Origin: an uncultured archaeon
GTDB taxonomy: Archaea > Asgardarchaeota > Lokiarchaeia > Sigyniarchaeales > Promethearchaeaceae
Reading direction: 5' to 3'
Length of the DNA: 23,793 bases
NCBI GenBank assembly: GCA_964426185.1
Contig: CAYRPF010000051.1
Coordinates: forward strand, 1 to 23,793
This document shows positions 15,220-23,409 of the stretch, one piece after another. The position numbers and the translations under genes are program-made. Positions within the stretch are counted from its first letter, which is position 1. Every line of letters starts with the position of its first letter. The notes below the pieces were generated by a model. The model worked only from the letters and a program-made list of their open reading frames with translations, was not told the origin of the DNA and searched no databases.

Positions 15220-15248
15220 AAGAAAAAATAGATTTTTTTTCTACTTCA
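15220..15248 (+). terminator. Probable terminator (A-rich/U-tract hairpin) after the 14322-15218 gene
   Basis: AGAAAAAA...TTTTTTTTCT immediately after the stop codon. Confidence 0.4.
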
Positions 15249-15411
15249 ATCATAGTTGAATTGCAATAAATTAATAATCCCATTTCGCTAATTCTCTTAG
15301 TTAATACCTTTCTTAGTAATAGTAAACCAATTACTATCGCTTAGTAGTTCATGGTCGAATAACACCATCATGTTAAACCGTTAATGTGCCTCTCTACAAA
15401 TTACGGAAAAA

Positions 15412-15427
15412 GCCCTAACTCACTATG
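15412..15427 (-). repeat. Copy 1 of the 16-bp element CATAGTGAGTTAGGGC (inverted relative to copy 2)
   Basis: GCCCTAACTCACTATG at 15412-15427 is the exact reverse complement of 19763-19778. Confidence 0.85.
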
Positions 15428-15449
15428 AGAAAGATTAAAAGAAGAAAAA

Positions 15450-16211
15450 TCAAGGTGCATTCAAAGATTTGATTGGAACTAAAATGGTAAAATGTGATTT
15501 GTACAGATCACCATGGCTTAATTCTGTTATTTCATCTAAAAGATCCATTTCCATGGTCCCTTCTTTCATTCTGATAAAAGTATGGTCTCGATATTTATGT
15601 TCTTCATCCACAAATACGTCCACCATTTGAATATGATCAGCATCCATATTGGGATTGAAAGAAATATTCATGGAAAATAAAATATCCGCGGTGGGATCTT
15701 CCATCAAAAAGAGAAATTTGGCTTGCTGACTGACAATCATTTCCGCTAAATCAAAAAATAATGATTCCACACCTGTAACAATTGGTTTACTAGCATTTTT
15801 ACCTTGGAGAATGCTTTGAGTATAATCTGCAACTTCGGGTGTGAGAATTTTAAAATTGCCTGGTAATAGATTCTTCCGCTCATAAGTAGAGAGAAATTTG
15901 GTAAATAAAGGAGAAGTGGCTTCGTTTAGAAACTCATCGGAAAGTTTCTTAGATTTATGATAAATCATCATTTGATTATGATAGGATAATCCAGACATTA
16001 CTTTTGTATAGTAAAAATGTTTTTCTGGATCGTACGGAAGAATAACTTTTCTCTTTGCTCCCATTCCAAGTTGTTGCATCATCGCTTCGGGGCCTCCGGC
16101 ATCTAGATTTAAAATTAATAATAAAAACTTGCGAAAATCTTCTATTTCTAAGTAATTATGAAATTCTGCAAATTTACCCACTGCAAATTGATATTTTTCT
16201 TCGGAATTCAT
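15450..16211 (-). CDS. Hypothetical protein
   Basis: 253-aa ORF with normal protein composition and no recognised motif. Confidence 0.75.
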   Translation of the reverse strand: MNSEEKYQFAVGKFAEFHNYLEIEDFRKFLLLILNLDAGGPEAMMQQLGMGAKRKVILPYDPEKHFYYTKVMSGLSYHNQMMIYHKSKKLSDEFLNEATSPLFTKFLSTYERKNLLPGNFKILTPEVADYTQSILQGKNASKPIVTGVESLFFDLAEMIVSQQAKFLFLMEDPTADILFSMNISFNPNMDADHIQMVDVFVDEEHKYRDHTFIRMKEGTMEMDLLDEITELSHGDLYKSHFTILVPIKSLNAP

Positions 16212-19515: not shown

Positions 19516-19728
19516 ATGAAGATCGTAACAATCAATATTCCAGATCAATATTTAGATGGTATTGAAACATTGGTTAACTTAGGTTATTTTCCATCACGCA
19601 GTGAAGCAGTACGCCAAGCATTGAAGAGTTTTTTAGCTCGTGAAGCGGAATTCAATGAAGATTTAAGTTCTGATAAGTTTTCCAAATTGAAGCAATTCCA
19701 ATTAGATACTTTGATGAACTACAAGTAA
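19516..19728 (+). CDS. Ribbon-helix-helix (CopG-family) transcriptional regulator
   Basis: MKIVTINIP..YL..IE.LV..G.FPSRSEAVRQAL; G-rich SD-like run upstream. Confidence 0.9.
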   Translation: MKIVTINIPDQYLDGIETLVNLGYFPSRSEAVRQALKSFLAREAEFNEDLSSDKFSKLKQFQLDTLMNYK

Positions 19729-19762
19729 TTTTATTTACCTAATATCCAGCTTAAAATTATCC

Positions 19763-19778
19763 CATAGTGAGTTAGGGC
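19763..19778 (+). repeat. Copy 2 of the 16-bp element CATAGTGAGTTAGGGC, followed by a T-tract
   Basis: Exact reverse complement of 15412-15427; 22 of 24 positions match when extended (19760-19783 versus 15407-15430). Confidence 0.85.
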
Positions 19779-19827
19779 ATTTTTTTTGAGTGAAAAAATT
19801 TTTATTTTTTATAAGGTTAATTTCATT

Positions 19828-19917
19828 ATGATTGCGTCTGAACCAATCCTTTGTATCTCTATTCTAACGGAGTTGTTTAAGATCATCTCGGGCGCTATTA
19901 TTCCGATTATTGCATAA
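19828..19917 (+). CDS. Putative Ile-rich leader peptide of ileS (MIASEPILCISILTELFKIISGAIIPIIA)
   Basis: ATG at 19828 to TAA at 19915-19917. 10 of 29 codons are Ile, with three Ile-Ile doublets in the last 11 codons. Directly upstream of ileS on the same strand. Confidence 0.6.
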   Translation: MIASEPILCISILTELFKIISGAIIPIIA

Positions 19918-20139
19918 TCTCTCTTCAGAGGCCGCATTTTATTTCTTGTTTCAGACGCAAGATTCATTTTAACTTTTGTCAAGAAAGTGGCTTTAATTAA
20001 AGAAAAAGGGAGATTCTTGGCCAATGGTAATTTCGATAGGTCAACAACAACAATTTAATTCAAATATCTTTTTTGGAGATGAAAATTTGTTCATCTTATT
20101 ATACGTTCACAATATTAAATCAACAATGAGGAATATCTT
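19828..20139 (+). promoter_or_regulatory. Structured ileS 5' leader (candidate attenuator)
   Basis: Perfect 11-bp stem 19832-19842 / 19950-19960; stem 19978-19985 / 20014-20021; hairpin 20077-20083 / 20090-20096 next to a T-tract at 20069-20074. Confidence 0.55.
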
Positions 20140-23100
20140 ATGAAAACATTAGGCAATCTAAACTTACTCAAAATTGAAGAAAAAATCTTGAAATGGTGGG
20201 ATAGAGAAAAGATCTATGAAAAAATAAAAGCACAAGAACCCACTGATGAAGCGCAAAAATTTCTCTTCTTAGATGGACCGCCATACACAACTGGAAATGT
20301 CCATATTGGTACTGCTTGGAACAAAATTATGAAAGATCTTGTCATAAAATACAAAAGAATGCAAGGATTCAGAGTAACTGACACTCCGGGCTATGATACG
20401 CACGGTTTACCAATAGAAGTGGTCACCGAGAAGAAATTAGGAATCAAGAACAAACAAGAAATTATCGAATTTGGATTGGATAAATTCATATCCGAGTGTC
20501 GAGCTTATGCCGAAAGCAAAATTCCAGATATGAACGAGCAGTTCAAGCGTCTCGGATGCAATTTTTGGAACTGGGAAAATCCTTATATCACTTTAAAAAA
20601 TACTTATATTCAAGGCATCTGGTGGACATTAAAGCGGGCTTGGGAAAACGGTTATCTCTATAAATTCTATAAACCCCAGAATTGTTGCCCACGTTGTGCT
20701 ACCGCGCTGGCTAAACACGAATTTGAATATCATGATATAACTGATACCGCGATATTTGTGAAATTTCAATCGGTTGATGATCCTAAGACTTTCTTTGTAA
20801 TTTGGACCACAACACCATGGACTTTAGTCTCAAACACAAATATTATGGCTAATCCTGATGTAGAATACGTTAAAATGCGCGTGAAGGATGAAAATTGGAT
20901 CATGGCGATTGCAGCTACTTCAGATTTGTTGCAAAATAAATTAAGTTTAACTGTAAACGCTGATGACGGTTTTTCCTACGGCGAACGCTATACTGGATAT
21001 GATTTGGAAGGGAAGCGGTATATTCATCCATTTGCTGATCTGGTTCCAAAACAAAAGGAATTAGAGAGAGAACAACCCTTGGTTCATACAGTGCTATTAT
21101 CCAGGGAATATGTGCAAGAAACAGGTGGAAGTGGATTGGTTCACACCGCTCCTGGACACGGGCCAGAGGATTTTGAGGTTGGAGTATCGTACAACATTCC
21201 AATCTATTCTCCAGTTGATATGGATGGGCTCTATACCGAAGAAGCAGGCAACTACTTTAAAGGGAAATATGTACATGAAGTAAATCGAGAAATAATTGAT
21301 ATGTTACGCGAGCGCGGTACTTTAGTTTATGAAGAACCGATTAGTCACGAATATGCCCACTGTTGGAGGTGTAATACAAAATTGGTATATCGAGCTACGG
21401 AACAATGGTTCTTTAAAACATCTTCTTTACGAGAACAAATGTTAAAGGAAAATGATGAAATATTTTGGATTCCAGAATATGCTGGTGCTACTAATTTTAA
21501 ATCATGGTTATCTTCACTGCAAGACTGGTGTATATCAAGACAGCGTTATTGGGGTATTCCACTTTCTATTTGGACATGCGATAACCCAAAATGTGAAAAT
21601 TTGCATGTTATTGGTTCTATGGATGAATTAAGAGAAATGGCAGGCACTTGTCCGGAAGACATTCATAAACCTTGGATCGATGAAGTTACATGGAAATGTA
21701 GTAAATGTGGAGGTACTATGAGACGTATTCCTGATGTAATGGACGTTTGGTTGGATTCAGGTTCTGTCATGTGGGCTTCACAGAAATTTGTAGATGGGCA
21801 TGAGCATTATGATACTTGGCAGCCAGCAGATTTTATCATTGAGGGAAAAGATCAAATTCGGGGTTGGTTCAATTCTCTTTTATGTAGTGCTATGGTTTCT
21901 TCCAAGCGACGGAATTATAATGCTTGTTACATGCACGGATGGACCACTAGCCATGGAACAAAAATGTCAAAATCACTTGGTAATGCACTCGATCCCCAAG
22001 ATATTATTGAAGGTAACATCGAAATTTTGACAGAACAGCAGAAAAATTATCTACGCGAACTAGCATCTGCCGAAAAAACATCAAAATTTGATAAAACCAA
22101 AAAAATCACCATTAAACACAAGAAAAAGTGGAAACCCAAATATATCAAAGATGATAAACGATGGTCCATGATTAAAGGAATTGAGACATTTCGATTTTAC
22201 TCCGTAATGGGCACTCCACCGGGCAAAGATTTGAATTTTGACTATAAAGAATACACTGATACCTTCAAAGTTATAAATACACTGTGGAATCTCTATAAAT
22301 TTGCTCAAGAAAAAATGGAACTTAATGGATTTAAACCAACAGAACACCGCATCGAAGTCAATTCGTTAAAAGGCGCTGATAAGTGGATATTAGCCAGAAC
22401 TAACACATTAATCCGAACGGTCACCGATTATTTTGAAAGATATCAACTACCATCGGTTCCTGCTGCTATTCAAGAGTACATTTTCGAAGATTTATCTCGC
22501 TGGTATATTACTTTGATTCGGGATACGGTGGAAGTTTCAAATAAAGACGATGGAAAATTTCAAACCTTGGAAGTACTTTGGCATGTTCTTTATCAATTGC
22601 TTTTATTACTGGCGCCAATTAATCCCATGCTGACCGAAGAAATATATCAAAATATCTTTCGAGATGAATTACAAGATAAACTCAAAGTTTCTATTCATCT
22701 AGAACATTGGCCTTCTCCAGTTCCAGAATATGACAATCCTGAAATAGAAGTTGAAATGAGAAGAGTTAGGAAAATAATTGATGAAGTTCGCTCATTAAAG
22801 GCTGATAACAACATCAAACTTCGATGGCCCACTCAAGGATTAATTATAGTTCCAAAGGGTGAATCTCCCAAGCCATCCTTCCCAGATTTAATCCGAGAAA
22901 TGAGTAATGTGAAAGAATTAAAAATTCGGAAAACAAAACCGAAGAATCCCGATTTTTTATCTACAGAATGGAATGAATATGCTATCTTTCTTGATATGCA
23001 AGAATCGGAAGAAATTCACCAAGAACGCATTTTACGCGATCTACTTCGGACCATTCAATTTTTGCGTAAAAGCGCCAAATTACAAACTGGTGAAATAGTA

Positions 23101-23409
23101 GAATTACATTTAAGCTCAGAAAAAAAATTTCTACAGCAAACTATCGCAAACCATGCTGAAGCCATTCGTATCAAAGTTTCAGCTGATCCTTTAGTATTTT
23201 CTCCAGTTGAAGAGCAGGATAAAAAAGCAGATGGATGGACAAGTCATAATATGCATTTCTGTATGCATGAAAATTGTTTTGCTGTAGTGCGTGAGAAGAA
23301 TGCACTGGCAATTAAAAAGGGAGAATCCTATACCTGTGGATACTGCAAAAAACCCGTAACAGTAGCAAATATGGGCATAATTCAAATTTCTTTTAAAAAA
23401 ATTAAGTAA
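20140..23409 (+). CDS. ileS: Isoleucyl-tRNA synthetase (archaeal type)
   Basis: FLDGPPY, HIGTAWNK, GYDTHGLPIE, WTTTPWTL, GLVHTAPGHG, HCWRC, DWCISRQRYWG, EGKDQIRGWF, KMSKS. Confidence 0.97.
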   Translation: MKTLGNLNLLKIEEKILKWWDREKIYEKIKAQEPTDEAQKFLFLDGPPYTTGNVHIGTAWNKIMKDLVIKYKRMQGFRVTDTPGYDTHGLPIEVVTEKKLGIKNKQEIIEFGLDKFISECRAYAESKIPDMNEQFKRLGCNFWNWENPYITLKNTYIQGIWWTLKRAWENGYLYKFYKPQNCCPRCATALAKHEFEYHDITDTAIFVKFQSVDDPKTFFVIWTTTPWTLVSNTNIMANPDVEYVKMRVKDENWIMAIAATSDLLQNKLSLTVNADDGFSYGERYTGYDLEGKRYIHPFADLVPKQKELEREQPLVHTVLLSREYVQETGGSGLVHTAPGHGPEDFEVGVSYNIPIYSPVDMDGLYTEEAGNYFKGKYVHEVNREIIDMLRERGTLVYEEPISHEYAHCWRCNTKLVYRATEQWFFKTSSLREQMLKENDEIFWIPEYAGATNFKSWLSSLQDWCISRQRYWGIPLSIWTCDNPKCENLHVIGSMDELREMAGTCPEDIHKPWIDEVTWKCSKCGGTMRRIPDVMDVWLDSGSVMWASQKFVDGHEHYDTWQPADFIIEGKDQIRGWFNSLLCSAMVSSKRRNYNACYMHGWTTSHGTKMSKSLGNALDPQDIIEGNIEILTEQQKNYLRELASAEKTSKFDKTKKITIKHKKKWKPKYIKDDKRWSMIKGIETFRFYSVMGTPPGKDLNFDYKEYTDTFKVINTLWNLYKFAQEKMELNGFKPTEHRIEVNSLKGADKWILARTNTLIRTVTDYFERYQLPSVPAAIQEYIFEDLSRWYITLIRDTVEVSNKDDGKFQTLEVLWHVLYQLLLLLAPINPMLTEEIYQNIFRDELQDKLKVSIHLEHWPSPVPEYDNPEIEVEMRRVRKIIDEVRSLKADNNIKLRWPTQGLIIVPKGESPKPSFPDLIREMSNVKELKIRKTKPKNPDFLSTEWNEYAIFLDMQESEEIHQERILRDLLRTIQFLRKSAKLQTGEIVELHLSSEKKFLQQTIANHAEAIRIKVSADPLVFSPVEEQDKKADGWTSHNMHFCMHENCFAVVREKNALAIKKGESYTCGYCKKPVTVANMGIIQISFKKIK

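Follow-up and report, generated by a model that had tools for sequence, protein, structure and literature searches.

Does the isoleucine-rich short open reading frame (uORF) in front of the isoleucyl-tRNA synthetase gene (ileS) of a Lokiarchaeial genome act as a ribosome-read sensor of charged isoleucine tRNA? The question was raised by a first-pass annotation of a 23,793-nt stretch of DNA (contig CAYRPF010000051.1 of assembly GCA_964426185.1, considered here at its full length and called the window), which proposed that ribosomes stalling on the Ile codons of the uORF control ileS expression. In bacteria, the sensing of tRNA charging by leader peptides is textbook knowledge. Full-text searches on archaeal leader peptides, attenuation and uORFs yielded no report of an archaeal amino-acid-sensing leader; the matches obtained were bacterial attenuators, bacterial ileS T-boxes, mycobacterial leaderless polycysteine sORFs and archaeal Ribo-seq surveys, which describe 5'-UTR sORFs with no sensing role.

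If true, such a leader would represent attenuation-type control in the domain closest to eukaryotes, with an output unlike the bacterial hairpin terminator, and it would show that, among the prokaryotes most closely related to eukaryotes, gene expression can be directed by translation of a nascent leader. It would also offer a natural probe of archaeal transcription-translation coupling and termination, and a comparison point for eukaryotic uORF-based amino-acid control. Candidatus Lokiarchaeum ossiferum carries the element and grows in enrichment culture, so direct testing is possible.

Genomic features of the ileS locus

The window genome belongs to the genus Harpocratesius (Lokiarchaeia), in keeping with the Asgard-like host proposed earlier. 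The features of the locus were as follows.

19516..19728, + strand: gene for a ribbon-helix-helix (RHH) protein, 70 aa, CdrS-like below the cut-off; upstream neighbour
19750..19787, + strand: 5' motif of a repeated non-coding family, in a copy that closes with a T8 run; 5' boundary of the leader
19797..19806, + strand: TATA-like octamer by sequence, centred about 26 nt before the uORF ATG; putative promoter
19828..19917, + strand: Ile-rich uORF, 29 codons, 10 Ile; Ile codons 19-20 and 24, 25, 27 and 28 flank B1
19834..19844, + strand: segment A, core GCGTCTG invariant, in uORF codons 3-6; alternative partners B1 and B2
19888..19895, + strand: segment B1, codons 21-23, directly 5' of the terminal Ile run
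19948..19958, + strand: segment B2, core CAGACGC invariant, 31-41 nt past the uORF stop
20058..20105, + strand: proximal block, with a T6 run (20069-20074), an ATG, a 7-bp hairpin (20077-20083/20090-20096) and TTATTATA
20128..20132, + strand: Shine-Dalgarno (SD) sequence GAGGA of ileS, kept in the three uORF-bearing genomes
20140..23409, + strand: ileS, 1089 aa, the sole isoleucyl-tRNA synthetase gene found in the window genome

The uORF was confirmed as first described, with its ATG at 19828, a TAA at 19915-19917 and 29 codons on the + strand. It contained 10 Ile codons (6 ATT, 4 ATC and 0 ATA), clustered as II-SGA-II-P-II at the 3' end, and 6 of the 10 lay within the last eleven codons. The distance from the uORF stop to the ileS ATG (20140) was 222 nt, and the TATA-like TTTTTATT (19799-19806) and an AAGGT (19813-19817) were located at the positions given in the first-pass annotation. 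The AAGGT had been offered as an alternative SD; the motif is present in the window and is not conserved in the relatives. The ileS product was a true IleRS (TIGR00392, 809 bits against a cut-off of 621), and no tRNA or Rfam family matched in the spacer between the RHH gene and ileS.

Two other open reading frames in the region were rejected: a 71-aa ORF on the minus strand (19809-20024), the frame of which was closed in the relatives, and a longer, TTG-started form of the uORF (43 aa), the start of which was not conserved.

The synteny of the RHH gene and ileS was kept in three genera: in Harpocratesius, L. ossiferum and the genus g6, the RHH gene is the immediate upstream neighbour of ileS. 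The RHH protein (19516-19728) resembled CdrS, a haloarchaeal regulator of cell division, only weakly (at 43 bits, under the cut-off).

A family of non-coding elements of about 200 nt was also observed; they have a 5' motif (TTAAAT..CATAGTGAGTTAGGGCATTTT) in common, and their conserved body closes with an A/T run. Its members were found in the window (15225-15452, minus strand) and elsewhere in the same genome (C23:11917-12120, C9:3145-3340 and C70 near 13351), and none of them had an Rfam match. The family possibly represents small-RNA genes with their own promoter, or a terminator-like module. At 19750-19781, in the gap between the RHH gene and the uORF, only the 5' motif of this family recurred; the copy at 19750..19787 probably lies where the RHH unit ends, unless it is a shared promoter motif.

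Isoleucine content of the uORF

The background consisted of 2937 intergenic ATG-started ORFs of 15-45 aa from the window genome (34% G+C), in which Ile made up 10.2% of the residues. At this background the binomial probability of at least 10 Ile among 28 residues was 2.8e-4. Among the intergenic ATG-started ORFs of 25-33 aa, 2 of 738 had at least 10 Ile (an empirical tail of 0.3%); such a density, which the first-pass annotation had said would refute its reading if common among random short ORFs of this AT-rich genome, was thus rare. An Ile content of 34% was reached by 7 of the 2937 ORFs, and the two others of these with at least 20 aa were antisense or convergent to genes, hence no leaders.

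The choice of Ile codons also differed from the background. The share of ATA among Ile codons was 22% in genes and 33% in intergenic ORFs, while the three orthologous uORFs contained 0/10, 1/9 and 0/8 (1/27 overall). The Ile richness of the window uORF is not due to chance.

Comparative analysis of ileS leaders

The regions upstream of ileS were compared in 28 Lokiarchaeales genomes. An orthologous uORF of 28-29 codons was found before ileS in two relatives, Ca. Harpocratesius repetitus FW102 (same genus, ileS 81% identical to that of the window) and Ca. Lokiarchaeum ossiferum B35 (another genus, 68% identical). The conserved Ile-rich uORF with synonymous variation that the first-pass annotation had said to look for in other Asgard leaders was thus present in two other genomes. 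The signature ATG-NNN-GCGTCTG, followed after 80-130 nt by CAGACGC, occurred once per genome in the three, each time before ileS; it was found in none of 151 other Lokiarchaeales genomes and not in the reversed control. A covariance model built from the three leaders retrieved those three alone (E 1e-30 to 1e-35), and its weaker matches (E >= 0.006) were discarded as noise, none being near ileS. The 46 metagenome loci with relatives of ileS gave no further member, and the closest of them (74% identity) had a different upstream gene.

The uORF frame was the sole one of six open in all three genomes. The ATG and the frame were conserved, with lengths of 29, 29 and 28 codons and Ile totals of 10, 9 and 8. 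Five Ile positions were common to the window and L. ossiferum, and the others were lost in one and gained elsewhere in the other. Codons for the conserved Leu8, Ile12 and Lys18 differed synonymously between the orthologues, while the nine bases GCTATTATT were invariant, third positions included, which could point to a constraint at the RNA level. Outside the Ile and the stem-encoded residues the peptide was poorly conserved (11 of 28 identical), and the L. ossiferum peptide contained His, Gln, Lys, Asp and Arg and was polar or charged over its first 22 residues. The spacers of Harpocratesius and L. ossiferum could not be aligned apart from the uORF element and the proximal block, and the distance from uORF to ileS in the uORF-bearing genomes was 222-316 nt.

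On the ileS tree, Harpocratesius branched outside the pair formed by Lokiarchaeum and the genus g6; the element hence predates this split and is old. It was lost in g6, where the spacer between the RHH gene and ileS was about 140 nt, and in a second Lokiarchaeum-like genome, whose upstream region is rearranged.

Alternative helices in the leader

Two helices that share arm A, and are thus mutually exclusive, were conserved in all three genomes. The A:B1 helix had 8 bp, with 96% of cells paired as against 25-54% with a slid partner, and showed 1 compensatory pair and three one-sided changes that preserve pairing. The A:B2 helix, which was recovered by RNAalifold, had 11 bp, with 94% of cells paired as against 15-42% when slid, and showed two A-U to U-A compensatory pairs. 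At alignment column 24, L. ossiferum had U in place of A in arm A, and A in place of U at the partner positions in B1 and in B2. Duplex energies were -10 to -14 kcal/mol for A:B1 and -17 to -21 kcal/mol for A:B2. B1 lay between the Ile pair (codons 19-20) and the Ile run (codons 24-28), 1-9 nt 5' of the run.

The covariation is suggestive and not proof, because the three genomes amount to two independent lineages and the shuffle controls gave 51-172 of 500. The perfect inverted repeat around the uORF spans 11 bp and includes five G/C pairs; no such repeat arose when the spacer was dinucleotide-shuffled 300 times, and some 11-bp inverted repeat was obtained in 7.7% of the shuffles. Minimum free energy folds with ribosome masks were inconsistent over the three genomes, with a clean switch of A from B1 to B2 in H. 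repetitus only.

Elements that could convert the switch into an output were also sought in the leaders. A partner for B2 ('segment 4') was found at no conserved place in the three leaders and did not exceed the shuffles in two of the three. The search for a hairpin-plus-U-tract terminator in the leader found none, no helix sequestering the ileS SD was conserved, and the ribosome masks changed the accessibility of the SD little.

Promoter-like block and transcription

Eight genomes from three genera had a homologue of the block at 20058-20105 ahead of ileS, whether or not they carried the uORF; the block was present in Harpocratesius, both Lokiarchaeum-like genomes and the genus g6. All three uORF leaders contained a T6-T7 run 55-120 nt before ileS, and the invariant ATG of the block opened a mini-ORF of 6-16 codons in each genome. 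The block can be read as a promoter, an oligo-T terminator or a second tiny uORF. It is likely to be the core promoter of ileS and/or an oligo-T stop for the leader transcript; in the genomes without the uORF there is little else that it could be than the core promoter of ileS or some feature of its 5' UTR.

Because relatives that lack the uORF have the block too, ileS may possess a separate start site downstream of 19917, and may be transcribed mainly from there. A start in that position had been named in the first-pass annotation among the observations that would refute its proposal. If the block is a promoter, the uORF RNA would be an upstream unit linked to ileS by read-through or interference. 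On the 5' side, the TATA-like motif, centred about 26 nt upstream of the start codon, would make the uORF leaderless or nearly so. Both relatives had a similar T5AT motif 24-55 nt upstream of the start codon, and no SD in front of the uORF was conserved in the three genomes. The TATA position profile over 291 genes was flat, with no peak.

Four metatranscriptome runs from one 2025 study contained 89-100% of the sampled 31-mers of the L. ossiferum locus; one contig was placed there, over the RHH gene.

A second ileS and other synthetase genes

A second, non-orthologous ileS was found in two Lokiarchaeales genomes of another family (G037:C94 and G023:C41). Its product was an IleRS (TIGR00392, 810 bits), 33% identical to that of the window. 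This gene was preceded, at about 160-250 nt, by a 24-codon uORF that ends in four Ile codons. An arm just 5' of the AUG paired before the Ile run (-14 to -16 kcal/mol) and had an alternative partner 40-55 nt past the stop (-19 kcal/mol). The two leaders thus resemble each other in having A, a B1 before the Ile run and a B2 after the stop, in the similar energies and in a T-rich block before the gene. They differ in the paralogue served, in the unrelated stems, in the position of A (5' of the AUG in the second leader) and in length (24 codons as against 28-29), and the covariance model of the window element gave no match to the second-ileS leaders. That two different ileS genes are preceded by one and the same design is difficult to account for if the design does not serve ileS.

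The first-pass annotation had suggested a scan of other aminoacyl-tRNA synthetase genes for uORFs rich in the cognate residue; no cognate uORF was found before valS, thrS or leuS (archaeal and bacterial type) in the three uORF-bearing genomes. The top matches of a blind genome-wide scan for residue-biased uORFs preceded non-cognate genes. To judge from these scans, the candidate uORF device is tied to ileS in these genomes.

One further short ORF, Phe-rich and of 19 codons, was observed 29 nt upstream of the non-cognate alaS in the window genome (C26:7791-10863); it is probably a by-product of T-rich DNA. Both Harpocratesius genomes contained a bacterial-type LeuRS alone (TIGR00396, above cut-off; C89:8064-10430 in the window genome), with no archaeal-type leuS at E<=1e-100, and L. 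ossiferum had both LeuRS types.

Proposed mechanism

There is good support for a conserved candidate Ile-codon sensor ORF that is coupled to two alternative helices at ileS. On balance, the uORF probably serves as a cis-acting, ribosome-read gauge of charged tRNA-Ile(GAU) at ileS, in which a stall at the Ile codons would switch the fold of the leader. An open frame, a maintained Ile content, covarying helices and a recurring layout are the signatures that would be expected of an Ile-tRNA sensor tied to ileS. For this model we infer where transcription starts, that the uORF is translated and that ribosomes stall on it, which of the folds is 'on', the output step and the attenuation of ileS transcription by the leader.

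The transcript would begin at or just before the uORF AUG, and the uORF would then be translated. When Ile-tRNA is scarce, the ribosome would stall at Ile codons 19-20 and 24-28. With an Ile codon of the run in the A site, it would cover about 12 nt upstream and about 15 nt downstream of the P site and hide B1; because the Ile codons flank B1, the footprint of the stalled ribosome would cover it. With B1 withheld, segment A would be free to pair with B2 past the stop. When Ile-tRNA is plentiful, the ribosome would reach the stop, B1 would emerge first, exposed before or as B2 leaves the polymerase, and A:B1 would form, with B2 unpaired.

Archaeal polymerases stop at oligo-T runs, and the factor FttA/aCPSF1 terminates untranslated RNA. 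Given this mode of termination and the T6-T7 runs in all three leaders, premature termination would be the likeliest output. The two folds would then decide whether transcription reads through or stops early at the oligo-T block, 110 nt farther downstream, so that low charging would give more ileS mRNA. It could be the fold of the leader that tunes such termination, or the stalled ribosome itself, as in tnaC.

The original proposal of control by Ile-codon stalling is thus upheld in part. The conserved frame, the maintained Ile content, the two alternative helices and the parallel at the second ileS argue for it, while the lack of a terminator hairpin with U-tract and of an SD-sequestering helix, and the promoter-like block between uORF and ileS, argue against it.

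It is plausible, if short of probable, that Asgard archaea have a family of such gauges, in which cognate-codon uORFs with an A:B1/A:B2 switch steer archaeal termination or mRNA fate. The window element would then serve the native archaeal-type ileS and would have been inherited from the ancestor of Harpocratesius, Lokiarchaeum and their sister genus.

Alternative explanations

The uORF could instead be an independent gene for an Ile-rich micropeptide of 28-29 aa, with its own promoter, an oligo-T terminator and a folded mRNA, comparable to type I toxin mRNAs with 5'-3' fold-back, and adjacent to ileS by accident. The conserved ORF and the hydrophobic window peptide would suit such a gene; however, the peptide is poorly conserved beyond the Ile and stem residues, and the L. 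ossiferum version is not membrane-like. A TATA-like motif about 26 nt before the ATG, together with the T6-T7 run and the promoter-like block before ileS, suggests separate units. Against this stand the turnover of Ile positions under a maintained total and the Ile-run uORF with the same RNA layout at another ileS, which accidental adjacency leaves unexplained. We consider the micropeptide gene unlikely, both as such and in its toxin-like form.

For a structured non-coding RNA or an RNA- or protein-binding element (riboswitch-like or tRNA-binding), the open frame would be incidental. This reading, which we rate as rather less likely still, draws on the invariant blocks GCGTCTG, CGCTATTATT and CAGACGCAA, an Ile run without synonymous variation, the two conserved helices and the lack of a conserved SD before the uORF. 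It does not accord with the retention of frame, ATG and length in otherwise unalignable spacers, with the avoidance of ATA and the gain of Ile at new positions, or with the second-ileS leader, which likewise keeps an ORF ending in Ile codons; nor did any leader match an Rfam family. Very improbable is a product of chance, that is, an AT-rich, Ile-rich ORF with a fortuitous inverted repeat, or a mobile-element relic with terminal inverted repeats. The single copy per genome, always at ileS, the retention across genera with compensatory changes and the empirical tail of 0.3% are against it, even with a G+C content of 34% that favours Ile codons and an element absent from several close relatives. 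Some 11-bp inverted repeat did arise in 7.7% of shuffles, and a G+C-containing repeat of that length in 0 of 300.

Known classes of element were also screened. A T-box riboswitch was rejected (no Rfam match at E<=10 in the window and none at gathering score in the relatives), as were a C/D box sRNA or known ncRNA (no Rfam match; box-like strings not conserved in L. ossiferum), a type I toxin-like hydrophobic protein (L. ossiferum orthologue polar; the 11/28 identities mostly Ile or stem-encoded) and a MITE or mobile element (single copy per genome).

Comparison with known systems

The bacterial leader-peptide attenuators include E. coli trpL, ilvL, thrL and hisL, with pheM before pheST as the synthetase example. 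Like these transcription attenuators (general background in PMC2965389), the candidate ribosome-read gauge at ileS has a small reading frame that precedes a gene serving the same amino acid and carries a run of cognate codons towards its end. It also has mutually exclusive helices, one of which could be masked by a ribosome stalled on the cognate codons. The cognate codon cluster and, in two independent lineages, the exclusive helices are those of a leader-peptide attenuator; an intrinsic terminator or SD-sequestering helix was not found. Unlike them, it has an archaeal host, and the shared arm A is 5' of the sensor codons, so that the trp-type logic is permuted. The window leader further differs in having no terminator hairpin with U-tract, a spacer of 222-316 nt and a promoter-like block before the gene.

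In mycobacteria, ribosomes stalled on leaderless polycysteine sORFs block an mRNA duplex that hides the next gene's ribosome-binding site (bioRxiv 10.1101/834739). The likeness to the window leader lies in a short ORF, possibly leaderless in the window, that has a tract of cognate codons, in the proposed block of an mRNA duplex by stalled ribosomes and in a design found at several loci. The window leader differs in having no conserved pairing with the ileS SD and in the distance of its gene, which is more than 220 nt away.

Bacterial ileS is regulated by tRNA-Ile charging through T-boxes (PMC1262725). The gene and the signal are the same as those proposed for the window leader, whereas the T-box binds the tRNA directly and without an ORF.

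The tnaC-tnaA system of E. coli uses Rho-dependent attenuation, and tnaC senses free Trp through its nascent peptide. The window leader shares with it a uORF and a spacer of about 220 nt, and in tnaC-tnaA factor-dependent termination is controlled by a ribosome near the uORF end. Unlike tnaC, the window leader is proposed to sense tRNA charging and has no recognisable factor site. If termination by FttA/aCPSF1 or at oligo-T is the output, tnaC would be a workable analogue.
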